From Coxiella sp. (in: g-proteobacteria) (GTDB lineage: Bacteria; Pseudomonadota; Gammaproteobacteria; Coxiellales; Coxiellaceae), in NCBI GenBank assembly GCA_002732805.1, contig NVSS01000025.1, positions 1 through 44,049 of the forward strand: a DNA stretch of 44,049 nucleotides, given 5' to 3'. Positions within the stretch are counted from its first letter, which is position 1. Every line of letters starts with the position of its first letter. Shown in pieces: positions 1,045 to 29,100 of the stretch. The notes beneath the pieces were generated by a model, which searched no databases, was not told the origin of the DNA, and saw only the letters and a list, made by a program, of their open reading frames with translations. A program made the translations under genes and the position numbers.

Positions 1045-1806
1045 ATGAGTATTCTAGACATGTTCCGCCAAGCACCAGCCGCCCCTGCACCAGCTCCTAC
1101 CCAAGCAGCAGCTCTTGCTCCTGTAGGTCCTGCAGGCACTTCTATCCAAGAACCTAATATACAGCCCCAAACAGGGCCTGGTACAGATGTTAACGGTGTA
1201 GTTCCTCAGCAGCTTCCTGGAGCTCCAGAAGGACCTAAGCCCCCACTTGAGGAGTTTAAAGACCTATGGCAAACTGCTCCAGTAGATCCAAAAGCACCTG
1301 CTGATCCTAATGCACCTCAGACTCTTAATCTAGCAGATGTGCAGAAGGTCGTAGGTAATCAGAATATGACAGCTGCAGTTACTCCAGAGATGTTAGCTGC
1401 TGTTACTGGTGGTGGAGAAGGAGCCGCAGAAGCTTTAAATACTTTACTTACTACTGTTGCTCAGAATACACTTACTCAGTCTATGATGATTAACCAGAAC
1501 TTAACTGCTAAGGCAGTAGAGAGAGCACTTGCTGGACAGGATGCTAACTTGAATGCTAGAATTAAAAGTGAGATGGGGCAAGCTCATCTTTTAGATACGA
1601 ATCCCCTCTTTAATGATCCTGCAGTGCAACCTGTAATAGCAGCTGTACAAGAGCGATTACAAGTTCAGTTCCCTAATGCCACTCCCGCCGAACGAACCAA
1701 AATGACACAAGATTTTATTATTACGATGGGCGATGCTTTTAAGCCTGCTCCTGAAGTTGTTACTAAGCCAGGTGAAACAGACTGGTCTGCGTATATAACT
1801 AAGTAG
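1045..1806 (+). CDS. Scaffolding protein candidate (253 aa)
   Basis: Lies between the portal and capsid genes. Pro/Ala/Gln-rich, low-complexity N-terminal half and a helical-looking C-terminal half, as is typical of podovirus scaffolds. No enzymatic motifs. Confidence 0.55.
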   Translation: MSILDMFRQAPAAPAPAPTQAAALAPVGPAGTSIQEPNIQPQTGPGTDVNGVVPQQLPGAPEGPKPPLEEFKDLWQTAPVDPKAPADPNAPQTLNLADVQKVVGNQNMTAAVTPEMLAAVTGGGEGAAEALNTLLTTVAQNTLTQSMMINQNLTAKAVERALAGQDANLNARIKSEMGQAHLLDTNPLFNDPAVQPVIAAVQERLQVQFPNATPAERTKMTQDFIITMGDAFKPAPEVVTKPGETDWSAYITK

Positions 1807-1894
1807 GCAGCAGGTTTGCAGTAGGTTTGCAGCAGTTCCCATCTCCTTTGTTCTTTTCTTTCTTTTAACTTTATGATCTTATCGGAGATACTCT

Positions 1895-2311
1895 ATGACC
1901 TTTATTAGGCCACTTGTTAACAAACACGGTAATGTATCACAGCCTATGAGGGCTGGAGATGGCTTTGCCGCAAACTTACTTCCTGCTAACTTCGAGTCTG
2001 AGTCAGACGAAACTCTGCTTGTACCTGAAGTAAGCGGAGGTTCAGTCTTACAGGGACTTACTCTTACCAGTGATGTTACCTATACTTTACCTGAAGCTGT
2101 TGATCTCTTAGCTGAGTTCGGAGAGATGGACATCAGTGATAGTTTTAGCTTCTATGTAGGTAATAACCAGGCTGCTAGCTTTGATGTTATTCTTGCTGTA
2201 GGTGCCGGCATTACTGCGGTAGGTACTAATAACAACTTAACTGTAGGACCTCAGGCGGGTAAGATCTTTACCTTAATTAAAACCAGTGCAACCACTATGG
2301 ACTTGTACTAA
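1895..2311 (+). CDS. Hypothetical head-module protein (138 aa)
   Basis: ORF with RBS GGAG-N7-ATG, followed by its own hairpin and T-rich tract. Immediately upstream of the capsid gene. Confidence 0.7.
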   Translation: MTFIRPLVNKHGNVSQPMRAGDGFAANLLPANFESESDETLLVPEVSGGSVLQGLTLTSDVTYTLPEAVDLLAEFGEMDISDSFSFYVGNNQAASFDVILAVGAGITAVGTNNNLTVGPQAGKIFTLIKTSATTMDLY

Positions 2312-2321
2312 GATTAGCACC

Positions 2322-2358
2322 AGCGCTCTTACTTCTGGTAGGGCGCTTTCTCTTATTT
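2322..2358 (+). terminator. Putative intrinsic terminator or attenuator
   Basis: Stem agcgctc (2322..2328) pairs with gggcgct (2341..2347): 7 bp including one G-U pair. It is followed by ttctcttattt. Confidence 0.45.
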
Positions 2359-2401
2359 AATCTTTCACTTATAGCTAATCTTAGCTAACAGGATAATCAC
2401 T

Positions 2402-3619
2402 ATGATTTTTAATACAGATCTCTTTACTGAGGACCTAGCAGCGAAGTCGTTTGCTGGTATGATCACTAGGCTCATGCCTAATGGTACTGCCCCTCTATTC
2501 GCTATGACTTCTATGATGGGCGAAGAAACTGCCGTAGCTGTAGAGCATGGCTTCTTCACTAAGACTATGATCTTCCCAGAACTTAAGATCAATAAGTCCG
2601 GTGGCTATACTGCTTCTGAAACTACCTTCACTGCAGATAGTACTACTAATCTCTTACCTGGTATGATCATGCGCATTGAGCGTACTGGTGAGAATGTTAT
2701 CATCAATTCTGTGCCTACTACAACTACTGTAACCGTAGAGCGATCTGTTGGTTCCGTAGCTGCAGCTGCTATTAATGATGATGACGACTTCTTCCAAGTA
2801 GGTAATGCTTATGAAGAAGCTTCAGTTCGTCCTGCTTCTAATAACATCATCCCAGTACGAGTAACTAACCTTACTCAGATCTTCCGTAATACTTGGGGTA
2901 TCTCTGGTTCTGCTAAGGCTACTTCAGTTATTGCAGGTGAGTCTACTGACTCAGAGAACAAGCAAGATGCAGCTGCTCTGCACGCCTCTGATATTGAGAA
3001 GATGCTTTTCTTTGGTCAGAAGTCTCAGTCTACCAGAAATGGTCAGCCCTTTAGAACTGCTGATGGCTTGATTAATATCGTAGAAGATATTACCAACTAT
3101 CCGCCTTCTTATGCTGCGGTTAACAGTTTCACTGCTGGTGCTACCACTAACTGGACTCAGTTAGAAGGCTTCCTAGATCCAGTCTTTGACCAGACTACTG
3201 ATCCTAAGGCTGCTAATGAGCGGGCTCTGTTTGTAGGCGGAGCTGCTAAAGTAGTTCTGAATAACATTGGCCGGTTGAATGGTACCTACCAGTTGATGGA
3301 TGGCCAAACTAACTTCGGCCTACAGTTCTCTACCTTAACTACTTCTCGTGGTAAGTTTAGAATCATTGAGCATCCTTTGTTCAACTCTAACCCTATCTGG
3401 TCTAAGATGGCAGTTGGTGTAGATTTACCTTCCTTTAAACTGGCTTATCTCCAGGGCAGACAGACCCAGGAACTGCAGTTTAATACCCAGGGTAACCAAG
3501 CTCAGGATAATGGTATCGATGCAGTTGGCGGTACTCTTACTACAGAATGTACTACTGTAGTTAAGAACCCTCCTGCGAATGTTATCATCCGTAACCTGAC
3601 TTTAGCTGCAGAAGGCTAA
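2402..3619 (+). CDS. Major capsid protein (405 aa, HK97-fold type inferred)
   Basis: Position after the scaffold gene, appropriate size, and a terminator directly downstream. The sequence pattern (...RVTNLTQIFRNTWGISGSAKAT...DIEKMLFFGQK...) resembles N4/SU10-type podovirus capsid proteins as I remember them. Confidence 0.75.
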   Translation: MIFNTDLFTEDLAAKSFAGMITRLMPNGTAPLFAMTSMMGEETAVAVEHGFFTKTMIFPELKINKSGGYTASETTFTADSTTNLLPGMIMRIERTGENVIINSVPTTTTVTVERSVGSVAAAAINDDDDFFQVGNAYEEASVRPASNNIIPVRVTNLTQIFRNTWGISGSAKATSVIAGESTDSENKQDAAALHASDIEKMLFFGQKSQSTRNGQPFRTADGLINIVEDITNYPPSYAAVNSFTAGATTNWTQLEGFLDPVFDQTTDPKAANERALFVGGAAKVVLNNIGRLNGTYQLMDGQTNFGLQFSTLTTSRGKFRIIEHPLFNSNPIWSKMAVGVDLPSFKLAYLQGRQTQELQFNTQGNQAQDNGIDAVGGTLTTECTTVVKNPPANVIIRNLTLAAEG

Positions 3620-4194: not shown

Positions 4195-4788
4195 ATGAAC
4201 TTTTCAGAGTTAAAATCAGAAGTACATCTGCTTACTAACAGACCTGACTTGTTTGCTGAGACTGAGTCAGCTATTAAAGCTGCGACTCTGAAAGCTCATA
4301 AGGTAGACTTCTTTTCTAAAGACTTGTACTCAACTGGAGTAGCTTTTGAGGACCCAGGTTTCAGGCAGTCTCTAGATTATGTCTTACTCATTCCTAACTT
4401 TAGGGCTTTCAAGTCTTTTAGGCTTGCAGAAAACGAGACAGATGATACAGGCGACTTTATAGATATAATAACAATCGATGAGATCCTTGATGCTTACGGA
4501 AGAAATCGCACTAATATAGGATATGTAGCTGGCAGAGTCTTAGAACTCCGAGCAGCTGTAGAATTCCAGTTTGGCTTACTTACTGCTTATGTAAGTCCAA
4601 TAGTAACACCTGAAGAAGACTACTCATCTTGGGTAGCAGAGCAGTTTCCTTTCACCATCATTTACGAAGCTGCCAGAGTTATATTTACTTCTATAGGACA
4701 AGCTGATAAGGCAAGGCTCTATAGAGATATGAGAATTGAAGAATATAAAGAACTGGGCACATCTGCCCTAACTGATGTAGGCTCTTAA
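4195..4788 (+). CDS. Head-tail adaptor/connector candidate (197 aa)
   Basis: Position downstream of the capsid gene and upstream of the tailspike. The N-terminus (MNFSELKSEVHLLTNRPDL...) looks like many phage head-tail joining proteins. Size is comparable to T7 gp11, but I see no sequence similarity to gp11. Confidence 0.4.
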   Translation: MNFSELKSEVHLLTNRPDLFAETESAIKAATLKAHKVDFFSKDLYSTGVAFEDPGFRQSLDYVLLIPNFRAFKSFRLAENETDDTGDFIDIITIDEILDAYGRNRTNIGYVAGRVLELRAAVEFQFGLLTAYVSPIVTPEEDYSSWVAEQFPFTIIYEAARVIFTSIGQADKARLYRDMRIEEYKELGTSALTDVGS

Positions 4789-4827: not shown

Positions 4828-6714
4828 ATGACTAACTCACCAGCTGATGTTTGGAACCCTAAAGTAACTGTTAAGTTTGATGCAGACGATAGAACTGCTA
4901 GCGAAACCTTTACAGCTACATTAGGCCAAACTATATTTAACCTTTTAACTTTTTCCTATGCCTTAGATAACAATTCTCTGGCAGTATATAAGAATGGCCA
5001 GCGCCTAGTTAAAGGTACTGAATGGGGGGAGAGGACTGCTACTAGTTTTTCTGTAGTAGCCTCTGCTGCTGCTTCTGATGTATATGTAGCTGTAGGTGTA
5101 GTAGGTACTACTATAGTAACTCATGAAGGCAGCTTAATTAACCGTACTTTATATAATCTAGGAACTGAAGCAGCTAGCTCTAGTCATGAAGATATAACCG
5201 TAGGGCATATAATTGAAACTAATTATATAAATAGCCTCCTTACTGTAGGTAGTGGATCTGAAGTAGCTTTTACTGGTGCTGTAGACATTGGCAAGGCTAG
5301 TCAATGGCCGAATACTGATGATGGTAAGTTCTATGATCTGAACGGTAAGCAGTTTGAGGTGATACTCGACTTAGGCATTCTAAACCTTGCGGTGTACGGT
5401 GCTGTTATAAACGGCGATATCGCTAGCATATATGCTACAGCTCAAGCGGCAGGACATGACAACGTAATATTGCCTCAAGGTAACTTTAATTACACATCCC
5501 AGTTAAACGTAGGTAATGGTAAGTTAGTCGGCTCTACCACTCAGTTGAGTACCATTACCTACACAGGAGTTAGTGATATCGTATCAGTACTGTACTCTTC
5601 AGGTGCCATAATTCAGGATCTTAAAATATTAGGGCCTTGGGCAAGTGGTAGGGATGTGACTACTAACTTAGTAGGTATAAGCGACTCTGCCAGTGTAGTT
5701 GCGCCAACTGGGCAAAGTAATAGAGCTGTATTACGCAATGTAAGGGTTGAGCTTTTCGGTGTTAACTACTGGTTCAAAAATACACAAAACATTCTAATAG
5801 ACGATGTGTTTGCTCAGTACGCTAAATATAAAGAATACCACTTTGAAGATACCGAGAATACGTTTGCAACAAAGGTCAATGCTAACGGCACAGAAGGACT
5901 TGCAACAATTAGTTCTGATGCGTCATATAAATGGATACATGCGGATAATGCTCGGAACTTACGAATAACAGATGGCATTATGGAACGCGCCATTGACATC
6001 GTTGGGCCAGTACTATTCGAGAACGGTACCAGGGCAGCGCTCACCAATGTGGAGTTCAATGCTGCTACTGATTACATTGTAAATACTACCGACACCTCTG
6101 AGTTAATACTAGCCTCACCCGCATTTACAGCGTCAGGTCTTGGCGAGTTACTTGTCAAGGCTGAGGATTCTTCAGAGTGTGTAATGCAATCACCTACTCT
6201 TAGTGGTTCTGGCGGCGCTCACCTGTGGAGTTTAGTTAGCGGTAATGTGCGTGATGCTAGATCGGAGTCATCCTATACGTTTCATAAGACACCGCTGTCT
6301 AGGTTCGTTAATACTTCTGGCGGTACAGGTGTCATGAATGATGGAGTGTTAGAAGTAGTAGGCGCAGGATCTGCACAAGGTGTATTTATACAAGACAAAA
6401 CGTCAAATGCTATCTTCTCGAAAGCAACAGGTGACAACCTTGGCGGGTTCTATGTAGATTTAGAAGTTAGTGGTTTTTCTGGTGCTACTAAGATGAATGT
6501 ATATCTGCTCAAGCCTTCTCCCAGCTTTAGGCGTAAAATAGGCGAAGTTACAGCAATTGGCCATACTAGAATACCTGTCACATTAGAGGATGAAGATTCC
6601 TTGAATTCAATAGGATTAGGGGTCGAGTGGGACGGTTCAACAGTAGACCCTGATCACGGTAATAATGGTGTTGTTACGTTAGTGGGCCGTAGGGCAGTAC
6701 TAACCCGAGCATAA
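4828..6714 (+). CDS. Tailspike / receptor-binding protein with a pectate-lyase-like (beta-helix) depolymerase domain (628 aa)
   Basis: The motif LNLAVYGAVINGD..IYATAQAAGHDNVILPQGNFNY resembles the N-terminal signature of pectate_lyase_3/tailspike beta-helices (DyGA.gDG...A.q.A....v.iP.G.Y). The N-terminal ~170 aa have native composition, while the C-terminal ~460 aa have a different dinucleotide composition. Confidence 0.6.
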   Translation: MTNSPADVWNPKVTVKFDADDRTASETFTATLGQTIFNLLTFSYALDNNSLAVYKNGQRLVKGTEWGERTATSFSVVASAAASDVYVAVGVVGTTIVTHEGSLINRTLYNLGTEAASSSHEDITVGHIIETNYINSLLTVGSGSEVAFTGAVDIGKASQWPNTDDGKFYDLNGKQFEVILDLGILNLAVYGAVINGDIASIYATAQAAGHDNVILPQGNFNYTSQLNVGNGKLVGSTTQLSTITYTGVSDIVSVLYSSGAIIQDLKILGPWASGRDVTTNLVGISDSASVVAPTGQSNRAVLRNVRVELFGVNYWFKNTQNILIDDVFAQYAKYKEYHFEDTENTFATKVNANGTEGLATISSDASYKWIHADNARNLRITDGIMERAIDIVGPVLFENGTRAALTNVEFNAATDYIVNTTDTSELILASPAFTASGLGELLVKAEDSSECVMQSPTLSGSGGAHLWSLVSGNVRDARSESSYTFHKTPLSRFVNTSGGTGVMNDGVLEVVGAGSAQGVFIQDKTSNAIFSKATGDNLGGFYVDLEVSGFSGATKMNVYLLKPSPSFRRKIGEVTAIGHTRIPVTLEDEDSLNSIGLGVEWDGSTVDPDHGNNGVVTLVGRRAVLTRA

Positions 6715-6773
6715 CTATGAGCCAAGGTTGAGAGTCTATAAGTCCTATATTAAGCTAAACGCAAGGAATCAGT

Positions 6774-7064
6774 ATGTCAAGAGAAGAGGCTAAATCCTGG
6801 GCTTCATCTAATGTCCTAGGAGTAGTACAGTTAGCAGCTTTGGCTGCAGTATTCTATGTGAGTTCTACTGCTGATACTGCAGCTAGAACTCTTGTAGATG
6901 CGCATGAAGAAGATGCTGGACATGCAGTGTTAGTTGTAGCTATAGGTGAGAATGCCACTGCTATTAAGCTTCTGACGCAGAGAACCCAGTTTGATTCAGA
7001 TCAGTACAGGATAGATATGGCCCGGCTTCTGGCTCAGTTAGAAGCATATTCCAGAAAAAGGTAA
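6774..7064 (+). CDS. Small membrane protein (96 aa); holin candidate by position only
   Basis: One hydrophobic helix (VLGVVQLAALAAVFYV) near the N-terminus. It lies directly after the tailspike gene, as the T7 holin gp17.5 follows gp17. Confidence 0.35.
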   Translation: MSREEAKSWASSNVLGVVQLAALAAVFYVSSTADTAARTLVDAHEEDAGHAVLVVAIGENATAIKLLTQRTQFDSDQYRIDMARLLAQLEAYSRKR

Positions 7065-7080: not shown

Positions 7081-8592
7081 ATGGCTCAGTTAGACTTCAG
7101 CATGAACTTACAGAATACTAGATTCTCTCTTCTATCTTCTGACCAGTCTAGGACTGTTATTAACCCTGAGAGAGGAGGCAATCCAGATCCTCCTACTGTT
7201 TCTTATTCTCATAATATGATGGCTACTACAGAAGGCTATAAGACAATAGGCTATACAGTAAGGACTCCTGATGTTCCTGCTATAGTAAGTGGCTTTACTT
7301 TAGTGAGGCCTATAATAGCTATCGATGGCTCCCTTCATATATTAGGCTGGGACGGAGTAGGTCAAGCCTATAGGATAGCAGGAAGTGCTTGGCAGATAGT
7401 TAACCCAAGCCCTCCTCCTATATTACTTACAGAAACTATAACTGTGGGAGATGTAGATGGAAGAAGCTATATCTTCTATGAAGGCCATGGGTGTTTTAGT
7501 TATGATAGCGACACTAACACTCTTAATACTGTAACTCTTACAGGTTTAGATCTTTCTGAGGTAATAGGAGTAGCAGGCTCGAATGGCTATCTGGTAGCTT
7601 TTACAGGAGATGCAATAGCTTGGAGCAGTACTCTAGATCCTACTGACTTTGTACCTAGTCCAGTTACAGGTTCTGGAGGAGGCAAGATAGCAGACATAGA
7701 TGGCAGAATAATATTGACCACTAGCGTCTCTACTGGTTTGTTAATATATACAGGACATAATGTAGTAGCAGCTAGCTATACTGGGAACATTAACTTTCCT
7801 TGGAAACTTAAAGAGGTACCTAATTCTAAGGGCACCTCTACAATAGCAGATATAGCTTTTATGAGTAACTCAGGTCCTCAGTTTGTAAGAACTTTTGCAG
7901 GCTATCAAAGCGTAGTACCTCAGACTGCTGAAATGCTGCTACCTGAAGTAGAAGATTTTCTAACAGGAAGAAGAGTAGAAACTTTTAATGAGGTTACTTT
8001 TGTATATGATGAGGTATTTACAGGAGCTAACATTCTGACAAGGCTGACTTTGATAGGTTCTAGATACTTAGTTATATCTTATGGGCTAGCTGAAAGTCCT
8101 TTTAATCCTTTAGGTCCTTACACTCATGCTCTAATTTATGATAATGTATTAAGTAAATTGAGTAAGTTACTGATACGTCACATAGTATGCTTTGACCTAT
8201 CTCCTATAATTGCAGGAGCTGCTAATACCAATGCTATAGCTTTTCTGCAGCTTAAAGGAGCTGTCTATACTGTAGATACTAACAACTCTGAAGAAGCCTC
8301 TGGTGTACTGATCCTAGGTAAACTGCAGCATAGAAGAGGCAAGTTCTTAACTATCCTGGAGATCTCTCTTACTAATGCAGACATCTTTACAAAAGCTTAC
8401 GTACAGACTTCTTTAAATGGCTCCTCTTTTACAACTAAGGAGGCTTCCCTGAAACTTACTTCTACGCAAGGAGAAAGGGAGCTGATAGATTACAATATAA
8501 GAGAGACAGGAGTAAATCATTCAGTTGTTATTATAGGTAATGTAAACTTAGTTGATGTACATACAACTTATACAGAAGCTGGCGACAGGTAA
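7081..8592 (+). CDS. Virion structural protein, tail-associated (503 aa); function unassigned
   Basis: Long ORF with RBS (agaggagaattctt ATG) in the tail gene block. No motif recognised. Confidence 0.6.
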   Translation: MAQLDFSMNLQNTRFSLLSSDQSRTVINPERGGNPDPPTVSYSHNMMATTEGYKTIGYTVRTPDVPAIVSGFTLVRPIIAIDGSLHILGWDGVGQAYRIAGSAWQIVNPSPPPILLTETITVGDVDGRSYIFYEGHGCFSYDSDTNTLNTVTLTGLDLSEVIGVAGSNGYLVAFTGDAIAWSSTLDPTDFVPSPVTGSGGGKIADIDGRIILTTSVSTGLLIYTGHNVVAASYTGNINFPWKLKEVPNSKGTSTIADIAFMSNSGPQFVRTFAGYQSVVPQTAEMLLPEVEDFLTGRRVETFNEVTFVYDEVFTGANILTRLTLIGSRYLVISYGLAESPFNPLGPYTHALIYDNVLSKLSKLLIRHIVCFDLSPIIAGAANTNAIAFLQLKGAVYTVDTNNSEEASGVLILGKLQHRRGKFLTILEISLTNADIFTKAYVQTSLNGSSFTTKEASLKLTSTQGERELIDYNIRETGVNHSVVIIGNVNLVDVHTTYTEAGDR

Positions 8593-10230: not shown

Positions 10231-12216
10231 ATGGCTACCAATCCAATACTAAGTAAGCTGGGCTCTATTGCTGGATCTGCTGCTTCTGATATAGAAGACG
10301 AAACTGCTGTAGATGACTCTGCTCTTAAGGCTGCTATCTCTGATGCGGAAGATGCTCTGGGGACTACAGAAGATGAAGTAACTTCCTCTCTGAAAGATCT
10401 AGAAGTAGCTCTTGCTGAGCAGACTACTGCTACTGCTGAGAGTATAGAACAGATAGAAACTGCTACTAAAGAGTCTACTGTTGCTTCTGCTACTATTGAA
10501 GAAGCTATGGGAGGTATAGCAGAAGCTAACCAAACCATACAGGCAGTTAAGCTGAATGAATCTTTAAAGGTACAGAACACTACTATAGATGCTTTTGAAG
10601 CTGCTGGTGGATCTGAGGTGCAACTGCAACTAGTAGGAGAACTGGCAGCAGATTCAGCTAGGATCTCTGACCTGCATGATAACTTAATAGATATAGTGGA
10701 TGATGAACATACTGGTAACGCACTGCTAGATGGCATAGTAAACCAGTTCAGATCTATTCAGACTTACATAGAATTAGATGCAGCTAATAACAAGGCTGCG
10801 GCCACTTCTAGGGAGCTGACTAACATACAAGCTTCTACAGAGACTGTCGCTAGGACTGCTTCTCTAACTCAGAAGACTCTTAATGAAGCTACCATTGCTG
10901 CTTCCTTGAAGAAACTAGCTTCTGAGGATGCTATAGCGCTATCTGAGCAGCAGATTAGGAATATCAATGCTAACTCAGACAGAGTTGCTAAGATCTATAC
11001 CATGAGGCAGGGAGAGATCAATACTCTTCTGCAGACTTTCCGCTTAGAAGGAGAGGTACAGAACAGAGCACTTTCAGCAGAAAGGAACAAGTTAGCTGTA
11101 GAAGAAATGGCCTTTAGGAGAGAGCAACTGCCTTTGCAGAGAGAGAAAGACACTGCAGCCCTAGCTCTTACAGAAGCACAGCTAGCACAAACTACTGATC
11201 CTTTGAGGATAGCAGCACTGGAAGCACAGCAAGCTACTCAGATTAAGACTTTTAATGATACTATCTTAACAGAAAAAGCACAAGTACAGACAGTACAGAA
11301 AGCACAATCGGTTGCTGGTATTCCTATAGAAGCTGGAAGTCTTATTACAGCTGGTCTGAAACAGACTGGAGTATTAGGAGCTAGGTATGATGCCTTGCTA
11401 CTGATGGGTACGGGCGCCTCTCCTAGCTTAGGTGCAAACCCTTGGGAAGCTAAAAGGAACCTTGCTATAGTAGCTCCTACTGGTAACTTCACTCGTACTC
11501 CTGTTACCCGTATGCTTGATATGATAGAGATAAAGCAGCAGGCTAAGTATGCAGCTAACCCTGCAGGTATACCTAAGGACGAAGCTACTCTTAAAGCTAA
11601 CTTCAATACCACTGCAGCAGAGACAGCAGCTGATGCTTCGCAAACCATTATATCAGGAGATACATCTAATCCTTATGTGGCGCCTCCTATGACAGTGCTT
11701 AAAGATGTCAGCGCTATTAGGGATACTCCTCTGTTTACTAAAGTCTTGGGGCCTATGAATCTAACTGAGACTAACCCTCAGAAGATCATGGATGCTTCTA
11801 TAGCAGGAGTTAGAGCTAAGGTTATATCTCCAGAAGAAGCAGCGAATGGAATACAAACAATCTTTTCATCTGCTGCAGCTATAAATAATACAATGGCTGG
11901 AGGGTATTCTAGGATAGGATTCCCTTCTCAGACTACCTATAACGTACCTCTGGAGCTTCCACCTACAGCATTCCAAACACTTACTGGATCTATAGGGGTG
12001 GCCACTTCTGTAGCAGCTATTCCCTTTACTGGCATTCCTGGCTTAGTTAAAGGAGAAGGCTTCTTTGGAGGTCCTGATAAGGCTCTGCAAGCACTAGTTG
12101 CGGATAGGCTCTTTACTGTAGACTTGATGAATAAGCAAGAGGTTGAGTTCGCTATAGCTAAGCTCTTAGCAACTGCAGCACCCACTTCTACAGTTCTAAA
12201 AAAAGAAGGTGAATAA
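10231..12216 (+). CDS. Internal virion / ejection protein B candidate (661 aa, coiled-coil rich)
   Basis: Ala/Glu/Thr-rich, heptad-like sequence. Position analogous to T7 gp15. Confidence 0.45.
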   Translation: MATNPILSKLGSIAGSAASDIEDETAVDDSALKAAISDAEDALGTTEDEVTSSLKDLEVALAEQTTATAESIEQIETATKESTVASATIEEAMGGIAEANQTIQAVKLNESLKVQNTTIDAFEAAGGSEVQLQLVGELAADSARISDLHDNLIDIVDDEHTGNALLDGIVNQFRSIQTYIELDAANNKAAATSRELTNIQASTETVARTASLTQKTLNEATIAASLKKLASEDAIALSEQQIRNINANSDRVAKIYTMRQGEINTLLQTFRLEGEVQNRALSAERNKLAVEEMAFRREQLPLQREKDTAALALTEAQLAQTTDPLRIAALEAQQATQIKTFNDTILTEKAQVQTVQKAQSVAGIPIEAGSLITAGLKQTGVLGARYDALLLMGTGASPSLGANPWEAKRNLAIVAPTGNFTRTPVTRMLDMIEIKQQAKYAANPAGIPKDEATLKANFNTTAAETAADASQTIISGDTSNPYVAPPMTVLKDVSAIRDTPLFTKVLGPMNLTETNPQKIMDASIAGVRAKVISPEEAANGIQTIFSSAAAINNTMAGGYSRIGFPSQTTYNVPLELPPTAFQTLTGSIGVATSVAAIPFTGIPGLVKGEGFFGGPDKALQALVADRLFTVDLMNKQEVEFAIAKLLATAAPTSTVLKKEGE

Positions 12217-12218
12217 TC

Positions 12219-15200
12219 ATGGCAGAACCTAAGACATTCTTTAATACAGCGTATGCAGAAGCTCTCACTCGTATTAATAGCGGGGATACTTCTGAGGACT
12301 CTAGGATTCCTTCCTATATGGTACGGGCTAATACCTTGAATGTATCTAATAGGAACCAGACCTTTGAAGAGTCTGCTATAGACTTCGTAGAAGGGGTACC
12401 TAAGTTCATTGGTGCCTCTGTTATCTCTGGAGTATCTCAGCTGTATAACATAGCTCCTTCTATAGGCAATCTCTTTGGTGGTGACTTCGAAGAGCTAGAT
12501 ATAGGTGAAGTAATTGCTGACTTAGATTCAGACCTTGGACAGTTCTATAAAGAGCACCAGGAAGGTATAGATCTAGTAGGTTTCATAGCCTCCTCTATTG
12601 TGCCAGGTACAGCAGGTGTTAAGTTACTGAATGCAGGACAAAGATCTCTTACTGCTGCAATCGGCACAGGTAAACTAGGGAACGGCATGGCTAGAAGCTT
12701 TGGTCTCCTTGCTGCTCCTAATAAGCAGAAGCACCTATCTGCAGCTATCAGTGAAGTTGTTAACTCTAACTCAGCTGTCAGCCTTACTAATGGTGCAGCT
12801 TTGCGGGCTATTGGCTCAGGGTTTACTCAGAACATTCTAGAAGGTGCAGCCTTTGAAGTAGGTGTAGCTGCAACTATGTTTAACTCTCCTATTCTTGAAG
12901 CTCAGGACTTAGGAGATTTAGTAGCTAATGTAGCCTTCGGTGCAGGAGTCTTTGGTTTGGTAGGTGGAGTAGTGTCAGCGGTAGGTATTAACTCAGCTCT
13001 TAAGAAAGCTGCTACTGCTGCAGATATTGAAGCTAGACCTTGGGCTGATATCATAACTGAGACAACAGGGTTCTCTAGTGCAGCTTCTGCAGCTTCTTCC
13101 TACGAGAAGATAGCCCTGGACTTTGATCACATCAATAAGGTAGCAGGCAGACAAGTTCCTATGAATCTAGCTCCTGAGAGAAGAGCTTTCCTTACCAATC
13201 TGCAGGAGTCTACCATAGGCAAGGCTGAGCTAAGAATAAGAAAAGAACTGGGTGAAGTAGCTAACGGCGATCAAGTTGTAGCTGGCACTTTGTTTGAAGC
13301 TTTTAAGAGACAGAGCCTGGAAACTCAGCAGTCAGCTTTCATAGGTATGCAGGAAGCTACTCGCTTTGCTGAGGCTCCTAAGCTAGAGAAGCTGCTAGGT
13401 AAGCTGAAGAGAAAGATCTCTAAAGGTGATGCTACTATAGATGAGATAGATGAATACGCTAATGTAGCCAGGTCTTATACAAAGGTATGGGGCGAATCTG
13501 CAGGAGAGGTTACTACTGAGATCCCTGTTATCACCAGCTTGGTTGATACTCTTAAAGCAGGAGAGTCTATTAAGGTCTCTGCCGGTGGAGTTAAAGCTGG
13601 CTCTAAGAGCTATTCTTTTAACTCAGGGTACAATCTGAAGGTTCCTGGAAAGGGTAAGGCAGATAGAAGTACTGCTTGGAGTATGCTTACTTCTGAGCCT
13701 TTAGAAGCTAATGCTCGCTATCTGTGGGCAGCTAAGCTTCCTACCTTTAAGCCTACTGTAGCTAAGCCTATAAGAATTGGAGCAGATGATATACCTCTTC
13801 TGGAGAAAGCTATTGCAGACATTCCTGACAGCAGTATGCAGTTTGTAAAGATCGTAGCTGAAGATGGATCTCTTACTTCTGCAAGGGCTGGATCTATAAG
13901 GGAATCTATTGCTGATACAAAAGCACTGGTAGCGAACAAGCTGCATAAGTCTACTACAGAAGGTCTTGTAGGATCTGATGCAACAGTTGTAGCTAACAAG
14001 TTGCGATCTATGCTAGGGATAAGATTCTCTGTAGAAGATCTGACAAGCGGTACAATCGCAAGACTAAGAACAGTGGTCGCGGGTGAGACTAAAGGATTCT
14101 CTAAGATAGAGGTATCTGCTAAAGCTCTTACAGAACAGCCTCTCCATAAGCTGGTATCTACAATCCTGCATGAAGAAGGCCATGTTAAGTTCAATACTAT
14201 TCTTGATATAGGCGGCATACCTAAGTCTGAGTTTGCTACAGTTAAGAAAGAAATCATTGCAGCTTCTAAGAAAGCTAGACCTGGAGCTTGGAAGAATGTA
14301 CAGGAAGGTTCAGAAGACTTCCAGTATCTTAACTCTAATGCAGAACTTATGGCTGATAGCTTCTCCTTCTTTACTCAGTACCCAGGAAGAATGGCAGTAG
14401 AGGCTCCTACCTTTGAGAAGCTCTTTGGTCATCTGGTAAGACCTCTAGATAAGAAGCTGGTAGAGTCTTATTCTAAGCGTATGAATATGCTGACTCAGGA
14501 TGAGATAGCTTCTATGGTAAATGTTAAGTCTTCCTGGCTGGGAGGAGAGCAGGTTAAAGATGGAGTTCTTAAATCAGCTGACTCAGATATCTTTGCTATG
14601 CAGGATCATGCAGCACAGTATACAAAGAAGCTGGTAGATCAAGGCTCCTGGAAAGCTGATGCAGGCTTGGTAGATATGAGTGCAGTACCTCAGCATATGA
14701 AGCTTACTTATGATACTACTCCTTTTAAAGAGATCAACAATAATGTCATAGAGAACATGGCTACCATCAAAGGCTTACAGAAGCAGTACCAAGCCTCTGG
14801 TAATATAGCTTCTAAGGAAGTTCTTGGTAAGTGGTTTGATCAGCTGCCTGATATAAGCTCAGGTAAAGTTGCAGGTGATGCTAACAGATCTGGAGCAGGT
14901 GCAGGGTTTGCATCAGCAGCTTCTTCCAATTACGGCGGCCTTGCTGCTACCACTGAGTTTATTGGGTCTGTAACTTCCAGAGCTACTAGGGACTTCCAAG
15001 CTAAAACAACTGAAGTCTTAGAGCCTCTTCTGTACAAGCTTGCTAACAATCAGGAGGCAGCTGTAGAGTGGTCAGTTCTATCTCAGAGAGTAAGGAACCT
15101 AGAAGAGATCTATGGACTTAATGCAGCAGGTAATGCTCTTGAGCCTATTAAGCTTATACGCTGGAAGCAAGCTGTAGCAGAAGTTGAACAGGCTAATGCA

Positions 15201-17820: not shown

Positions 17821-18555
17821 CTACCCTTTAGAGGCTGGAGGTTCTACTCTACCTCTTAGCTTTGTAGCATCTATGCCATCTCTAGCATTGAGGTAGATGT
17901 ACTCAGCAGTATTCTCTAAATGAGACATGTCTGACATGGAGTTATCTACCATCAGATCCTCAGCTTGCACAATCACACTATTCTCACTGATATGAGCAGC
18001 TTGTTCTTCAGTGAGAGTAGCCTTCCTTCCTGTTATATGAACCAGCAAGCCATGCTCTCTTACCCAGGTAGCTTCGTTCTCAAACCTAACATCATCAATG
18101 ATAACTAGATCTATAGGCCCCCTTCCTAGGTTCCTTCTAGCTATATAGGTTTCTGCTGCTATCACCCAGATGTCAGGATGTACTAGGTGCCTTCCCCACT
18201 CTGTTCCAAGAGTCTGAATGATACCTCTGTAATCACAGCCGTAGATACTAGCTGCAGCAGTGTCCTTATCTACCAGACCTAGCCCCCCAAGTAACATATC
18301 TTTCAAAGGCTTAGCAAAGCTATAACGAATAAGAGTATTTCTCTCGTCTATTACATTATCTATAGCTTGTGCAACAGTAGTCTTACCACATCCTGCCTTA
18401 CCAGCTAAGCCTATGATGAAAGGGAGAGGTCTTTTAAAGGGGGCAGGAACAGAATCAAACTCATCTCCTACCTTCATAGCTCTTTCTATCTTCTCGCTTC
18501 CCTTCTTTAGCCTTCCGGCTCCTTTCAGTTTATCTGTGCTATTTTTAGTGCTCAT
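17821..18555 (-). CDS. Deoxynucleoside monophosphate kinase, T4 gp1-like (244 aa)
   Basis: P-loop GLAGKAGCGKTT. Blocks are colinear with T4 gp1 as I remember it: YSFAKPLKDML ~ YQLAGPIKDAL; IIQTLGTEWGRHLVHPDIWV ~ LMQALGTDLIVNNFDRMYWV; VIIDDVRFENE ~ YIVPDTRQDHE; AHISE ~ THITE. Confidence 0.75.
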   Translation of the reverse strand: MSTKNSTDKLKGAGRLKKGSEKIERAMKVGDEFDSVPAPFKRPLPFIIGLAGKAGCGKTTVAQAIDNVIDERNTLIRYSFAKPLKDMLLGGLGLVDKDTAAASIYGCDYRGIIQTLGTEWGRHLVHPDIWVIAAETYIARRNLGRGPIDLVIIDDVRFENEATWVREHGLLVHITGRKATLTEEQAAHISENSVIVQAEDLMVDNSMSDMSHLENTAEYIYLNARDGIDATKLRGRVEPPASKG

Positions 18556-18806
18556 GATACTATTATAACTCCTTTCTTTTTAAGTTTCCAAAAGAGCTTA
18601 GGATACAAGTGCTCCAGCTCCATTGGCATATAGTCCCCATTCATGATCACTCCTACATAAGCTGCTACTTCTCCTAGCCAAGCTCCGTGATCATCTTTAG
18701 GGAGAGGTCCCAAGAGATTCAAGAGTACAGGATGGTTAGCAACTTCTTTGTTAAGAGCTATCCGCGCCTCACTCCACACCTCTAGGTTCTTTCTAGTTGT
18801 TCCCAT
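18552..18806 (-). CDS. Hypothetical protein (84 aa from the internal ATG)
   Basis: The ATG at 18806 is preceded by GGAGGA-N8, so it is preferred over the upstream ATG at 18848. It overlaps the DHH gene stop by 14 nt and the dNMP kinase start by 4 nt. Confidence 0.65.
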   Translation of the reverse strand: MGTTRKNLEVWSEARIALNKEVANHPVLLNLLGPLPKDDHGAWLGEVAAYVGVIMNGDYMPMELEHLYPKLFWKLKKKGVIIVS

Positions 18807-19866
18807 CTTTAGATTCCTCCTCTGCGTATGCTCCTCTCTTAAATACATTATCTAGGATACCTCCAGCTTCTATGTAGCTAACCTCAAATCCTGCAGCATT
18901 CTTATGCCCTCCTCCTCCAAAGATTTTAGCTATAGCAGAAACATCTGTATCTCCTACGCTTCTTAGGGAGAATGTGAATCTTCCAGGTTCGCCTACTAAA
19001 GTCTTACCTAATGCAGTGAACTCATCCATATCAAATAGGAGACAAGGAAGTTGGTGCTTCTCTGCTACATAATTACCTACAGCAGAAGTAAACTCTACAG
19101 GACAGGTAGCAGCTAGCATCTTATGCCCAGCTATGGTTACTGGTAGTGTCTCCTTGCCAAAGAACTCTACCTTCTTCTCATGCTCAGCTAGCAATCTGTT
19201 CCCTGCTATTACTATCCTGCTCCTAGTATCATGCTGCTCAAGATCTGCTGCTGCTCTATCCCAAGCAGAGAAAGTTTTAGCTAACTGCCTCAGGTACATG
19301 TTAATAGCTTTAGTCTCTGAGTACTCAAACTGATACAGGTCATAATCCTGTACATACTCTACTAGAGTTTCGCCATGATTAGGTAGCATACCCCCAAAGA
19401 ACTCCGCACAGATGCCTGCTCCGCTAAGGGCATTAACTAATACTATAGCTGTATTCAGCTCAGGTATCTTTTTAAAGAGCTTAGAGTCTTTATCAACTAC
19501 ATACCCTTTCTCTGCATACATCTCAAAGGCAGTCTTGTGGTGATCTAGGATCATTATAGCTATCTCAGGACCAGTGGGTGCTTCCTGTAGCTTCTCTATC
19601 CAAGCTAAAGATACAGAGAAGTCTACTATGTATAGGTTAGTATACATCCCTACAAGGATCATATTGTGTAGATCAGTCAGACTCTTCTCATTGTAAGTCA
19701 CACCTAAGCAGTCTATAATTGCATTAGGTCTAGCCTTCTCTAAGCTCCTAGCTGTAACCCAAGCAGATGTAAAGCCATCTATGCAAGGATCATGATAAGC
19801 TATTAGGATTCTTTCTTTTGCTACTGAATCTTTCTCTTCATTAGGGGTTTCTGTTTCTATGCTCAT
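18793..19866 (-). CDS. DHH/DHHA1-family phosphoesterase (NrnA/RecJ-like, 357 aa)
   Basis: Motif I AYHDPCIDGFTSAW, motif II LYIVDFS, motif III ILDHHKT, and DHHA1 motif FGGGGHKNAAGF. Confidence 0.8.
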   Translation of the reverse strand: MSIETETPNEEKDSVAKERILIAYHDPCIDGFTSAWVTARSLEKARPNAIIDCLGVTYNEKSLTDLHNMILVGMYTNLYIVDFSVSLAWIEKLQEAPTGPEIAIMILDHHKTAFEMYAEKGYVVDKDSKLFKKIPELNTAIVLVNALSGAGICAEFFGGMLPNHGETLVEYVQDYDLYQFEYSETKAINMYLRQLAKTFSAWDRAAADLEQHDTRSRIVIAGNRLLAEHEKKVEFFGKETLPVTIAGHKMLAATCPVEFTSAVGNYVAEKHQLPCLLFDMDEFTALGKTLVGEPGRFTFSLRSVGDTDVSAIAKIFGGGGHKNAAGFEVSYIEAGGILDNVFKRGAYAEEESKDGNN

Positions 19867-21297: not shown

Positions 21298-21531
21298 CTA
21301 AGCTCCCTTCTCTGCTGAGTCTGTTGGTTGTGAGATAGGTAACAGCTTCATTACAAGTTGCCTATGATCTCCAGGATTTAAGCCTAAGTACTGTAGCTCT
21401 TCTCTGGTCAGTTCTACTCCTGTAGGTCTGCCGCCGTAAGGTATAGTATGGCCTCTGCATTTACTGCCTACATCATACTCCCTAGGTGCAGTAAACGTAC
21501 CACCTCCTTTAGGACTGTATATAAATTTCAT
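21298..21531 (-). CDS. Hypothetical protein (77 aa)
   Basis: The ATG at 21531 overlaps the DNA polymerase stop as TAATG. The listed start at 21537 is a GTG. Confidence 0.6.
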   Translation of the reverse strand: MKFIYSPKGGGTFTAPREYDVGSKCRGHTIPYGGRPTGVELTREELQYLGLNPGDHRQLVMKLLPISQPTDSAEKGA

Positions 21532-23981
21532 TAACACTCACTCCAATAAATTGATGGGTTATCTGCAGGTCCACACTTAGTCTCTGCTGGAACTGTAAAC
21601 GTCCTTACTACTCCGTCATATGCTTTAATAGTTACTGGTATCTCTAAGAGATCCTCAACCATCTTACACAAGTACTCATGATCTTCTCTGAACTGAAAGA
21701 GAATCGAATCATGTATCTGTGCATTAAGTTTAAAGTTAGCTGTATGTTTTGGATTCATTGCTATATTATGATAGGTTGCTAGATAAGCTTTATTTAGTGT
21801 TTGTGCATTTAATGATTGAGGTGGATGAGCTATATAAGAATTAAGAGATTGTTTAGAGGCAGAAGGATTACCAAAGCATCTACGAGTCCAAGAACCTTCT
21901 GCTTGCAGGTCCCAGTCTTCTTTAGAAGTGCAGTAGTGAACAGCCTGACTCTTAAGCATCCCTGTCATAGCTATCTCATTCTTAACTCCTTCATACATAG
22001 TTCCTCTAATACCTGGGTAGGTTTTATGGAACTGCTCTAGGAGATACTCAGCTACTTGCATGTAAGTCCAGAATCTATTCAAGCCTAAGAGGATCTTAGC
22101 TTCCTGTACCTTCTCCTCTCCCATAGTGTCTATAAGAACATAAGCTCCCATATTATAATTGGCACCATGATTGACTGGCTTACCCAGTTGTCTTAGAGGT
22201 TTGTTAATAACTTCTTGCTTCAGTGCATCATAGATCTCTTCGAACGGAACACCAAAGAACTTAGAAGCATTGTAAGAGTGGAAATCTGGGGAGTGTTCTA
22301 CAGCTTCTATCAGAGTAGGATCTCCAGATATGTAAGCTGTATCTCTACTCTCTGCCTGAGATAGGTCAGCTTCTGCTAAGAAGAATCCTGGGTCTGCTTT
22401 GAGAGTTCTCTTAACAGCAGGGCCGCGAGGTATGTTTTGTACTTGCAAGCCACACCAAAAGTGGTGCTCTCTGCTAGCCAAGCGAGAGGTATCTGTACCA
22501 TGAGGATTAAGAGCGAATAAGATCCTACTGCCTGTGCCATCTTGTCTCCTAAATTCTTTACCAGGAGTAAGGTATGTAGAAACTAGCTTCCTAGCTTTCC
22601 TTATTGTAAGTACAAGGGATAGGATCTTAGCATTAAGAGGATGTCTGAAGCGAGCCTTAGCCAGAGCTTTGGCATCTGCATTCTTAAGATCTTTGCAGCC
22701 TAAGAGAGCTAGTAGCTGCATCATCTGCTTAGGTGAGTTAACATTGAAGCTCTCCCCTGCAGGAACTGAGAGGATAGTATTAAGAGAGAAGGTGGCCTTA
22801 TCTATGATAGCATCTTGCTCAGCCTTAGCTGCTTTAAGAGTATCCATATCTCTTTCTATTCCTGTCATCTCTGATAAGTGACAAGGGAATACAAGAGGAA
22901 ATTCTAAGAGGTAGTTAGTTCTAGCATACTCTGGTGCTTCTATAAGCATTGCAAGAAAAGCATTACCAGTACCCCAAGTGTCAAGAGCGTTATACCTATA
23001 GTACTCATGTAAGTCATTAGTCTCTGCTAGATCTTTCCAGTAAACAGCTTCTCGTATAAAGAAACTATTAAGGAAGCCGAGGTCTTTAGGGAGTTCGCTA
23101 TACCAAGAATGGAACCAATGAGCAGTATCAAATAGATAGTTATAAACAGGAGCATTGTAACGAGCGAGATAAGCGATATCATACTTTCCATTCTGAAATA
23201 CCTTAGGTGCTTTAAGTTCCCAGTTCCACTTCTTCATGATAGCTAGGTTATATTCTGAGTCCATAGGTAAGACATAACTCATGCTTTGCAAGATAGAAGA
23301 GCCTGGCATATAGTAGAAGCCTGTATAAGATAGGCACCTGATAGCAGCATTCTCTCTAAAGGTTTCTATATCTATACAGACCATGAATGAATGCTTCTGT
23401 ATGAAGTTGAAAGATGCTTCTTCTTTCTCAGGAGTTAGTTCTTCCCAGTTAAAAGCAGAAGGTACGAACCATTCATCCTTATGAGTAAGCTTCTTTATAA
23501 GCCTCGTTGCCATGAACTTACCAGAAGGTACTGTTACCAACTGCTTCAATGGAGATATGAATACTATTTCTATATCAGGCCCAGCAGAGCTATTCATAGA
23601 AGGTATCTTAAAATAAGATCCGGCATAGTTAGACAGGGAAGGAGCTTTTCTTTTATCCCAGTATAAGAGTTTCTTTAAGAGATCTACGGAGGTGGATATG
23701 ACTTTATTGATTTTTCTTCCTGCGCAGTACATCTTTAACTGAGCTACAGTCTCCAGCTTATCTAAACGCAGGCGCACTGTATAAGATCCTACGCAACCTT
23801 TAAGATAAGGTAGGTAGTTCTTATCTGCTGCTGTTCCCCAGAATAGAATAGAATCTTCTGCCAGAACTTGCCGCCTACCAGTACTCAGAGAAATGCCTTC
23901 TGCTTTTGCATCTCTCATAGCTGCTATATGCTGCGCTAGCTTGGAGCTTGTCTTAGGCTGCTGCTTAGGCTTAGCTATCAT
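21531..23981 (-). CDS. Family A DNA polymerase with 3'-5' exonuclease domain and a ~200-aa N-terminal extension (816 aa)
   Basis: Exo I CIDIETF, Exo II QNGKYDIAYL, Exo III YNALDT. Pol motif A LAEADLSQAESRD, motif B RQLGKPVNHGANYNMG, motif C AQIHDSILF. Confidence 0.9.
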   Translation of the reverse strand: MIAKPKQQPKTSSKLAQHIAAMRDAKAEGISLSTGRRQVLAEDSILFWGTAADKNYLPYLKGCVGSYTVRLRLDKLETVAQLKMYCAGRKINKVISTSVDLLKKLLYWDKRKAPSLSNYAGSYFKIPSMNSSAGPDIEIVFISPLKQLVTVPSGKFMATRLIKKLTHKDEWFVPSAFNWEELTPEKEEASFNFIQKHSFMVCIDIETFRENAAIRCLSYTGFYYMPGSSILQSMSYVLPMDSEYNLAIMKKWNWELKAPKVFQNGKYDIAYLARYNAPVYNYLFDTAHWFHSWYSELPKDLGFLNSFFIREAVYWKDLAETNDLHEYYRYNALDTWGTGNAFLAMLIEAPEYARTNYLLEFPLVFPCHLSEMTGIERDMDTLKAAKAEQDAIIDKATFSLNTILSVPAGESFNVNSPKQMMQLLALLGCKDLKNADAKALAKARFRHPLNAKILSLVLTIRKARKLVSTYLTPGKEFRRQDGTGSRILFALNPHGTDTSRLASREHHFWCGLQVQNIPRGPAVKRTLKADPGFFLAEADLSQAESRDTAYISGDPTLIEAVEHSPDFHSYNASKFFGVPFEEIYDALKQEVINKPLRQLGKPVNHGANYNMGAYVLIDTMGEEKVQEAKILLGLNRFWTYMQVAEYLLEQFHKTYPGIRGTMYEGVKNEIAMTGMLKSQAVHYCTSKEDWDLQAEGSWTRRCFGNPSASKQSLNSYIAHPPQSLNAQTLNKAYLATYHNIAMNPKHTANFKLNAQIHDSILFQFREDHEYLCKMVEDLLEIPVTIKAYDGVVRTFTVPAETKCGPADNPSIYWSEC

Positions 23982-28854: not shown

Positions 28855-29100
28855 TTATAGATCTTTCAGCTCAATCTTAGTTGCGATCTCTATAAAGCTG
28901 AAGGTTATAGTCTCACCTTCTATCTCTCTATGGAGTTTGAATGCGAGGTTCTTTTCTGAGACTAGTAGTTTCCAGCCTTGATCTTTAGTCTTCTCCTTCT
29001 TAACAGCCTTGATAATTCTTAGGTGTAAATGTACCGGCGCCTGTATAGAAGCAGTATGATCTAGCTTAAGTCTATTCCAGATAGGTTCATACTGTCTCAT
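28855..29100 (-). CDS. Hypothetical protein (81 aa)
   Basis: First ORF after the 29.1-29.36 kb intergenic region. No clear SD upstream of the ATG. Confidence 0.5.
   Translation of the reverse strand: MRQYEPIWNRLKLDHTASIQAPVHLHLRIIKAVKKEKTKDQGWKLLVSEKNLAFKLHREIEGETITFSFIEIATKIELKDL

Follow-up and report, generated by a model that had tools for sequence, protein, structure and literature searches.

P22-like tailspikes (P22, Sf6, HK620) are modular proteins in which a shared N-terminal head-binding domain carries unrelated C-terminal beta-helix receptor-binding domains. In analyses based on Karlin's dinucleotide relative abundances and on the amelioration concept of Lawrence and Ochman, a sharp-edged segment at a high dinucleotide distance (delta*) from the rest of its genome is read as a recent, un-ameliorated horizontal acquisition. 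Here we describe a segment of this kind in contig NVSS01000025.1 of assembly GCA_002732805.1 (deposited as Coxiella sp.), a stretch of 44,049 nucleotides (nt) that was analysed whole and is called the window below. The segment makes up the distal part of a gene for a putative tailspike or receptor-binding protein of 628 amino acids (aa), located at positions 4828-6714 on the plus strand and assigned from its open reading frame (ORF), its synteny, and AlphaFold2 and Foldseek results. It stands out against a backbone that is very poor in CpG.

Across 4969 phage genomes the median CpG odds ratio is ~1.00, and a family at 0.82 has been termed low (PMC11409064); conventionally, values <0.78 count as depleted (PMC11282364). 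The whole window contains 547 CG dinucleotides vs 1940 expected, an observed/expected ratio (o/e) of 0.28. An earlier description made from the letters alone (the sequence-only reading) had called this suppression extreme and unusual for a phage, and the comparison with the published median bears it out. Its five hand counts of CG were also exact: 3 in 7081-7560 (o/e 0.15), 2 in 10231-10710 (0.09), 5 in 22021-22500 (0.22), 4 in 21531-22010 (0.23), and 17 in 5341-5820 (0.80).

A compositional island in the distal tailspike gene

The CpG suppression is interrupted within the tailspike ORF. Specifically, CpG o/e was 0.31 over nt 4828-5340 and 0.87 over nt 5341-6714 (1374 nt, 56 CG), while the remaining 44 ORFs of the window gave 0.27 when pooled and none exceeded 0.47. 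We used a two-rate likelihood scan for CpG-rich stretches over all segments of 200-6000 nt, and the best segment was 5301/5341-6710, with 56-57 CG in ~1.4 kb and a log-likelihood ratio (LLR) of 29.9. In 300 random placements of the 547 CG, the maximum scan LLR was 14.6 and the 99th percentile 9.7. Profile likelihood placed the left edge of the island at 5309 (2-unit support 5196-5390) and the right edge at 6706 (2-unit support 6677-6818). The island at 5309-6706 (no strand assigned) is of normal CpG and normal AG/CT, as seen in the LLR scan against its null, in full-signature segmentation and in delta*. The sequence-only reading had proposed a CpG switch inside one ORF at about 5340, after ~170 N-terminal aa of native composition and just before a pectate-lyase-like motif, with the island ending at the stop codon. 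All of these placements held: the first 171 codons show the backbone pattern, the change-point and the alignments to relatives agree on a junction just before the motif (a beta-helix cap), and the right edge lies next to the stop codon at 6712-6714. The observation is confirmed, and it is stronger than first stated.

The full-signature segmentation, which is not limited to CpG, put the island at 5183-6706. Symmetrised values in the island vs the rest of the window were 0.86 vs 0.26 for CG, 1.09 vs 1.67 for AG/CT, and 1.16 vs 0.78 for AC/GT. The delta* between island and rest was 0.239, compared with 0.069±0.022 (maximum 0.138) for windows of equal length elsewhere, and the island was still the top deviant segment when CG was omitted. 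GC content was near-equal (43.7% in the island vs 42%). With position-specific expectations, CpG at codon positions 1-2, 2-3 and 3-1 was 0.76, 0.75 and 0.96 in the island and 0.37, 0.18 and 0.34 in the backbone. The start of the gene is backbone-like in this respect as well, with CT at codon position 3-1 of 2.06 and AG of 1.42 over nt 4828-5340. A codon-usage scan, which had been suggested along with the original observation, showed that synonymous choice differs too: between backbone and island, GCG goes from 4% to 18% of Ala codons, ACT from 56% to 26% of Thr codons, and AGA from 48% to 18% of Arg codons. The high AG/CT of the backbone (1.65), which is absent from the island, had been missed in the sequence-only reading.

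Homology of the two tailspike parts

The two parts of the protein have different relatives. An exhaustive HMMER search of 1.84 billion cluster representatives with the tailspike gave three layers of matches: many over aa ~4-96; many over aa ~100-200/260, found at varying positions in other tailspikes; and only five proteins over aa ~182-628, at 34-47% identity and each with a different N-terminus. Separate searches of the two parts, as the sequence-only reading had recommended, likewise led to syntenic tailspikes of backbone relatives for the N-terminal part, and for the C-terminal part to the five proteins, which have other N-termini and belong to other phage types.

Three N-terminal features can be delimited on the plus strand. 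The anchor module (aa 1-96; nt 4828-5115) has native composition and shares 32-42% identity with the beginning of the ORF found at the syntenic position in 14 related loci. In 13 of these 14 loci the match is confined to aa 1-~95, and in the remaining one (L018) it reaches aa 219. The linker module (aa 97-178; nt 5116-5361) is contiguous with the anchor in L018 and in a second homologue, P0008; it holds the change-point, is the likely crossover zone, and ends in the conserved motif DGKFYDLNGKQFEV (DG-FYDL-GKQF-V; aa 165-178, nt 5320-5361). Alignment then places the N-terminal cap motif of a beta-helix, LAVYGAVINGD, at aa 187-197 (nt 5386-5418). This is the pectate-lyase-like motif of the sequence-only reading, and it aligns with a WFGAxxDGxTD-type motif present in the five C-terminal relatives as well as in the N-terminal ones. 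In another homologue (P0003), a sub-threshold match to Pect-lyase_RHGA_epim was found at the cap motif (E 3e-4, 21 bits vs a cutoff of 27).

The position of the junction was also approached at the protein level. The nearest N-terminal relatives, L018 (aa 1-219, 42% identity) and P0008 (aa 6-228, 39%), align unbroken through the motif at aa 165-178 and into the generic cap motif at aa 187-197, whereas in the five C-terminal relatives the segment before the cap differs. The protein-level junction is therefore at ~aa 179-190 (nt ~5360-5400), which falls at the upper end of the compositional support interval. Our reading of the two results is that the crossover took place within the shared linker or at its end, located to about ±100 nt.

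The best C-terminal relative, P0002 (47% identity), carries a Head_binding domain of the P22 type, and a NinG gene lies next to it. The 3-kb contig of P0002 (GC 42.1%, CpG 0.87, AG/CT 1.06) is very close in composition to the island (43.7%, 0.86 and 1.09). Another C-terminal relative, P0006, lies beside an M15 peptidase on a contig of 52% GC and CpG 1.16. A word-indexed protein search with the C-terminus and its profile returned only the window's own protein, P0002 and P0006. A scan of genome, viral and JGI metagenome contigs with the C-terminal alignment gave pattern matches but no true relatives, so that neither a donor nor a near-identical copy of the C-terminal part was found there, and tblastn of the tailspike against INPHARED gave no match. 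Exact-sequence look-ups of the flanking genes, made to find close relatives that carry a different tailspike, led back to the same sample only.

Synteny and islands in related phages

The tailspike occupies a hypervariable position in a conserved gene order. In ~20 related loci, a conserved 197-aa gene is followed by an ORF whose first ~95 aa match the window tailspike, then by 1.3-3.5 kb of variable sequence and a conserved 503-aa gene. In the window, the 197-aa gene (4195-4788, plus strand) is the left synteny anchor; it has native composition (CpG o/e 0.34) and 43-64% identity to its counterparts in the relatives. It has 256 homologues at E <= 1e-20, the best non-self match being just 67% identical. 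The right synteny anchor is the 503-aa gene (7081-8592, plus strand; PHROG virion structural protein, CpG o/e 0.17), which in the relatives lies 1-3.5 kb downstream of the tailspike start, at 34-42% identity.

Between the island and the right anchor, the window has a 96-aa ORF (6774-7064, plus strand) just downstream of the island, again of native composition (CpG o/e 0.22), for which neither tblastn against the related loci nor Pfam gave a match. The interval from the tailspike to the 503-aa gene varies in length and content among the relatives.

Most relatives show no compositional step in their tailspike. In one relative from another sample (L007; IMGVR_UViG_3300025018_000253), the tailspike at 11855-13489 has CpG 0.26 over its first 300 nt and 1.24 over its distal 1035 nt (from codon 201). 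The AG/CT of this distal part is 0.77, compared with CG 0.69 and AG/CT 1.39 for the rest of the locus, and it is the most deviant 1.4-kb window there (delta* 0.22). A deviant distal tailspike was also seen, in weaker form, in L010. Foreign distal modules therefore recur in the family, and the native-looking distal modules of the other relatives are consistent with amelioration or within-family exchange.

Predicted fold of the tailspike protein

The window tailspike had no match in Pfam (E <= 0.01), in PHROG or among PDB sequences, whether searched as a single sequence or as a profile, and the P22-type Head_binding domain had no Pfam match in its anchor. We describe its fold from an AlphaFold2 model built on a six-sequence alignment, with a mean predicted local distance difference test (pLDDT) score of 58.6. 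The model is beta-rich, with pLDDT of about 70-90 from aa 200 on, while the N-terminal 200 aa are unstructured. Regular short strands (DSSP) at pLDDT of about 70-90 over aa 212-530, together with Foldseek matches, suggest a parallel beta-helix body at aa ~212-530 (5461-6417, plus strand). The top Foldseek matches, with a probability of 1.0, were the Klebsiella K2-2 tailspike (8iqe, E 3e-10), Kp7 gp52, Depo32, Det7 and CBA120 TSP2. Viral pectate-lyase-superfamily proteins (BFVD) also matched with a probability of 1.0, and the HK620 tailspike was among the matches.

The model ends in a C-terminal beta-sandwich (aa ~538-627; 6439-6711, plus strand) of long antiparallel strands at pLDDT 80-90. Here Foldseek gave weak matches of ~150 columns to CBM29 (1wcu, TMt 0.53) and to a MAM-type domain, with E of about 1e-3, so the sandwich may tentatively be considered carbohydrate-binding. 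Overall, the predicted fold of the product of ORF 4828-6714 is of the tailspike depolymerase type, which would make it a receptor-binding protein and depolymerase. The distal part probably binds a host surface polysaccharide, with cleavage predicted from the modelled fold.

Origin of the distal tailspike module

Taken together, we consider it very likely that the window is the complete genome of a podovirus distantly related to Pseudomonas phage 119X (Fredfastierviridae), and that a receptor-binding module was recently swapped into its distal tailspike, an event of a familiar type. The step in composition, the modular pattern of homology and the conserved gene order described above are direct observations; the direction of the transfer and its recency would be what they imply. 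In the proposed sequence of events, the family-specific N-terminal anchor (aa 1-96) would fix the spike to the tail and be followed by a linker (aa ~97-178) common to many tailspikes. The distal beta-helix and beta-sandwich (aa ~180-628) would have been replaced when the phage recombined with a tailspike gene of an unrelated pool of phages with ordinary dinucleotide composition. The left crossover would fall inside the linker or at its end (nt ~5200-5390) and the right junction at the gene end. The exchange would be recent in the sense that the backbone bias has not yet reshaped the incoming 1.4 kb. The sequence-only reading had suggested a recently swapped receptor-binding or depolymerase module from a donor free of the backbone's CpG pressure. 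This idea is now well supported by the signature, by codon use, by the split relatives, by the syntenic hypervariable position in ~20 related phages, and by a nearest C-terminal relative whose contig has normal CpG at an equal GC content.

Several points weigh against this interpretation. The donor was not found, the nearest C-terminal relative being 47% identical, and the nearest backbone relatives reach at most 67% (adjacent gene) to 81% (capsid); because both sets of relatives are this distant, the breakpoint cannot be read by alignment. N-terminal relatives align to about aa 220, which is 30-60 aa past the composition edge, so the crossover is known to about ±100 nt. The word recent carries no time scale, and the predicted enzymatic function comes from a model of medium confidence (mean pLDDT 58.6, ~70-90 C-terminally). 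In addition, the three assemblies in which the gene is identical (that of the window and two others) all represent one sample (SAMN07571238) and one read set (SRR5988111).

This last point bears on a possible assembly chimera, in which the tailspike of the phage would have been fused to the distal tailspike of a second, CpG-normal phage present alongside it. Only that one sample has yielded the phage, all three contigs with the gene derive from it, and the conserved motifs of tailspike linkers could supply common k-mers. Nonetheless, a chimera would need two junctions, one in frame inside the ORF and one at the stop codon, with a return to native sequence after the second. The ORF is intact over 628 aa, the three assemblies with the identical gene come from different pipelines, the contig closes on itself with a 99-nt overlap, and the same kind of island is present in L007 from another sample. 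We thus regard a chimera as highly improbable. It would be just as hard to accept that the distal tailspike is native and that its CpGs are held by selection on amino-acid needs, expression level, or a DNA or RNA signal. Against such a local constraint, the rise in the island is largest at the synonymous 3-1 and 2-3 codon positions (0.96 and 0.75 vs 0.34 and 0.18), the AG/CT excess is missing and AC/GT is changed, and the C-terminal protein segment has no homologue in any backbone relative. What speaks for local constraint is the capsid gene, which is CpG-richer than its surroundings, through CGN arginine codons, in the window and in 24/24 relatives. Such retention of CpG implies that selection can locally oppose the bias, but the capsid gene keeps its AG/CT excess (1.47), which the island does not.

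The capsid gene deserves a separate description. The second-best CpG segment of the scan was 1651-3350 (LLR 9.3), which had not been mentioned in the sequence-only reading; it surrounds the gene of the major capsid protein (2402-3619, plus strand; Pfam SU10_MCP, E 3e-38), where the CpG rise is weaker (0.47). The 24 relatives in which this gene is CpG-richer than its flanks fall within L003-L040. Their capsid genes encode arginine almost solely by CGN codons (13-19 CGN vs 0-3 AGR), while the window has 10 CGN vs 5 AGR, indicating that CpG loss has begun to erode its capsid gene. The rise in the capsid gene reflects translational selection, as the gene is highly expressed, and not transfer. A second transfer at 1651-3350 was considered and rejected, the rise being a family-wide feature of the capsid gene. 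The smaller rises that the sequence-only reading had pointed out (29100-30861, o/e 0.41, and similar spots) reached an LLR of only about 3-4 and are not significant.

Nature and possible causes of the backbone bias

The backbone bias is not confined to CpG or to coding sequence. Over the whole window, AG/CT is 1.65, GC 1.33 and TA 1.15. Taken in order, these raised steps run A>G>C>T>A and so form a cycle. There are 606 AGCT sites, 3.7x the mononucleotide expectation, and AGC/GCT, CAG/CTG and AGA/TCT reach about 1.9-2.1x. Intergenic DNA, 3.7 kb in total, shows the same pattern (CG 0.20, AG/CT 1.61, GC 1.26, TA 1.24). Within codons and across codon boundaries, respectively, AG is 1.67 and 1.70 and CT 1.66 and 2.47, and AG and CT are both raised on the coding strand. 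The presence of the bias in intergenic DNA and at codon boundaries, and the joint rise of AG and CT, speak for a strand-symmetric property at the DNA level and not for an effect of codon usage or mRNA.

The bias is shared, to varying degrees, by related phages. In 41 related loci and genomes, CpG ranges from 0.24 to 1.14 and AG/CT reaches up to 1.65. With the window backbone included (n=42), CpG is negatively correlated with AG/CT (Spearman -0.57, p 8e-5) and positively with GC content (0.62). The cultured phage 119X (L046; GC 45%) has the window's bias in weaker form (CpG 0.52, AG/CT 1.32). As a proxy for its host we used the temperate P. aeruginosa phage PP9W2 (L047), which has a GC content of 59%, CpG 1.05 and AG/CT 1.01. 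Since 119X differs from a temperate phage of the same host species, the family signature is not a host copy in that case. We infer that the bias has a cause that moves with the phage lineage, whose replication proteins are its own, and favour this over a copy of the host. The sequence-only reading had taken the CpG depletion to be an actively maintained property of the lineage. That part is plausible, as the same bias recurs in intergenic DNA, at codon boundaries and in the relatives, although active maintenance itself would be an inference. None of the three causes that it offered as examples fared well, as discussed below.

One of these examples was CpG methylation followed by deamination, and another was CpG-directed restriction. 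In favour of such causes, CpG is the sole strongly depleted dinucleotide, and ACGT (0.10) and TCGA (0.15) are its lowest contexts. The degree of depletion varies with context, CGCG being at 0.19 and GCGC at 0.87. Deamination predicts an excess of TpG/CpA, yet TpG/CpA o/e is 0.95 over the genome as a whole, lies within 0.90-0.98 at codon positions 2-3 and 3-1, and is 0.83 between genes, and the dinucleotides that gain are AG/CT, GC and TA. Likewise, the synonymous third position before G favours A (AG at 3-1 of 1.70) and not T (TG of 0.90). Avoidance of a single CpG-containing restriction site was not seen either: 15 of the 16 NCGN contexts are low (0.10-0.53, with GCGC at 0.87), and palindromes with CG occur at 0.80-1.01 of the frequency expected from a Markov model. 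A Pfam scan of 40 phage ORFs, several small ones lying outside it, revealed no methyltransferase. Altogether, methylation with deamination or restriction avoidance is an improbable cause. The retention of GCGC was considered as a possible motif and rejected, its 74 sites being dispersed and fitting the trinucleotide expectation. Among capsid-gene sites that are CpG in most relatives (n=21), the window has lost 11 (5 to AG, 4 to TG, 2 to AA), a sample too small to speak for a mechanism.

The third example, host mutational bias, belongs to a broader alternative in which the phage mirrors the mutational bias or the replication and repair of a CpG-poor host. The seven unrelated taxonomic labels attached to relatives of the phage (see below) single out no host, so this particular phage may have a CpG-poor one, which has to be held against a cause that lies in the phage. 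Bacterial CpG o/e varies widely and falls with GC content (PMC11282364), and within the phage family CpG tracks GC, as noted above. On the other hand, the phage brings along genes of its own for a family-A DNA polymerase, a primase-like protein, helicases, an exonuclease and a deoxynucleoside monophosphate (dNMP) kinase. Host bias is also contradicted in the one cultured case, with 0.52/1.32 (CpG/AG/CT) in 119X at 45% GC vs 1.05/1.01 in the temperate phage of the same host at 59% GC. Moreover, P0002, the protein closest to the acquired module, is encoded on a contig with the same GC content and normal CpG. We consider mirroring of the host to be rather unlikely.

As a tentative proposal, which we hold to be possible but doubtful, the 119X-like lineage may carry a phage-intrinsic, strand-symmetric and host-independent pressure at the DNA level that lowers CpG and raises AG/CT (with GC and TA), the window being its extreme case. 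Possible drivers of such a pressure are the error or repair spectrum of the replication enzymes that the phage itself encodes, a mechanical demand on its DNA, or a defence that detects CpG in DNA. If this were true, incoming modules such as the tailspike tip would be internal clocks of the pressure.

Genome organization and relatives

The window is a circularly closed genome with an exact 99-nt direct repeat at 1-99 and 43951-44049, giving a unique length of 43,950 nt. The contig ends cut through the portal gene (673 aa; 42618-44049 and 100-689), and the listed ORF at 12-689 is its C-terminal part only. According to Pfam and PHROG, one strand encodes an SU10-type capsid protein, the large terminase, the portal and a ~1850-aa protein. 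The other encodes a family-A DNA polymerase, a DUF3987 primase-like protein, an SF1 helicase, a PD-(D/E)XK nuclease, a dNMP kinase and a DHH phosphoesterase. The kinase is T4-gp1-like (17821-18555, minus strand; PHROG E 3e-38) and adjoins the replication genes, as does the DHH phosphoesterase (18793-19866, minus strand; E 3e-53). T4-gp1-like kinases are present in some phages with modified bases and also in phages without them. No modification enzyme was detected in the scanned ORFs of the window, and the window has no tRNA genes.

The overall layout follows that of the Fredfastierviridae (119X/PaP2 group), with terminase, portal, capsid, tail genes and a ~1850-aa protein on one strand, and polymerase, primase, exonuclease and helicase on the other. 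The SU10-type capsid protein is shared with 119X, Aeromonas phage P5 and Polaromonas phage Tiera at 35-40% identity. The distance from this family is nonetheless large, as megablast of 10.7 kb of the window backbone against INPHARED gave no match. The window's own clade differs from the Fredfastierviridae in consisting of ~45-kb environmental phages without a cultured member, whose capsid proteins are 64-81% identical. Going by record names only, members of this clade are also present in metagenome bins from ocean surveys and groundwater. In a comparison that covered the capsid and the layout, the distance from the Fredfastierviridae would fit a separate clade at the genus or family level.

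Contigs of relatives deposited in metagenome-assembled genomes (MAGs; L037-L043) bear seven labels: Nitrosomonadaceae, Ponticaulis, Anaerolineae, Nitrososphaerota, Saccharibacteria, Bifidobacteriaceae, and an unclassified 'bacterium'. We rejected these labels as host evidence, as they are mutually discordant and the contigs (~38-55 kb) are whole phage contigs that were mis-binned. Public MAGs that hold such phage contigs call for caution. Relatives of the P0002 N-terminus and of its NinG neighbour are scattered among many proteobacterial phages and gave no host call.

Significance and comparison with known systems

The module swap itself is textbook phage mosaicism; it is the composition of the backbone that is unusual. 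Owing to the extreme signature of the recipient, the swap is visible unusually cleanly from raw composition, and studies of host range gain a well-defined receptor-binding cassette whose edges are mapped. More useful as a lead is the backbone, in which a CpG of 0.28 is coupled to an AG/CT of 1.65 without a deamination footprint, in intergenic DNA and across codon boundaries, with a weaker signature in cultured Pseudomonas phages whose host does not show it. As 119X-type phages can be cultured, the cause of the bias is open to experiment (polymerase spectrum, DNA modification, defence evasion), for which the foreign, un-ameliorated island would be an internal control.

Under-representation of CpG with no obvious methylation cause has been described in bacteria, where it is tied to thermophily and DNA bendability (PMC11282364), and in the Demerecviridae (0.82; PMC11409064). 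The depletion in the window is similar in kind but far stronger, and it differs from both in being coupled to AG/CT. As in other genome-signature islands, the delta* of the segment is far beyond the internal scatter and its edges are sharp. It departs from them in that the signal is almost wholly dinucleotide (CG, AG/CT, AC/GT), with GC content barely shifted, and in that the recipient signature is unusually extreme, which makes the island unusually clear. Solved capsule and O-antigen depolymerase tailspikes (K2-2 8IQE/8IQ9, Kp7 gp52 7XYC, Depo32 7VYV, Det7 6F7K, CBA120 TSP2 6W4Q) are the best structural matches to our model (E 3e-10 to 2e-6); identity to them is just 9-13% and TM-scores are about 0.3, the scores being lowered by the unstructured N-terminal 200 aa of the model. 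The closest parallel in architecture is with the P22-like tailspikes, which share with the window protein a conserved particle-binding N-terminus, a short linker and an exchangeable beta-helix, and whose type of Head_binding domain is carried by P0002. Unlike in these, the anchor in the window comes from a different family, and the exchange is visible as a dinucleotide step and not just as mosaic homology.

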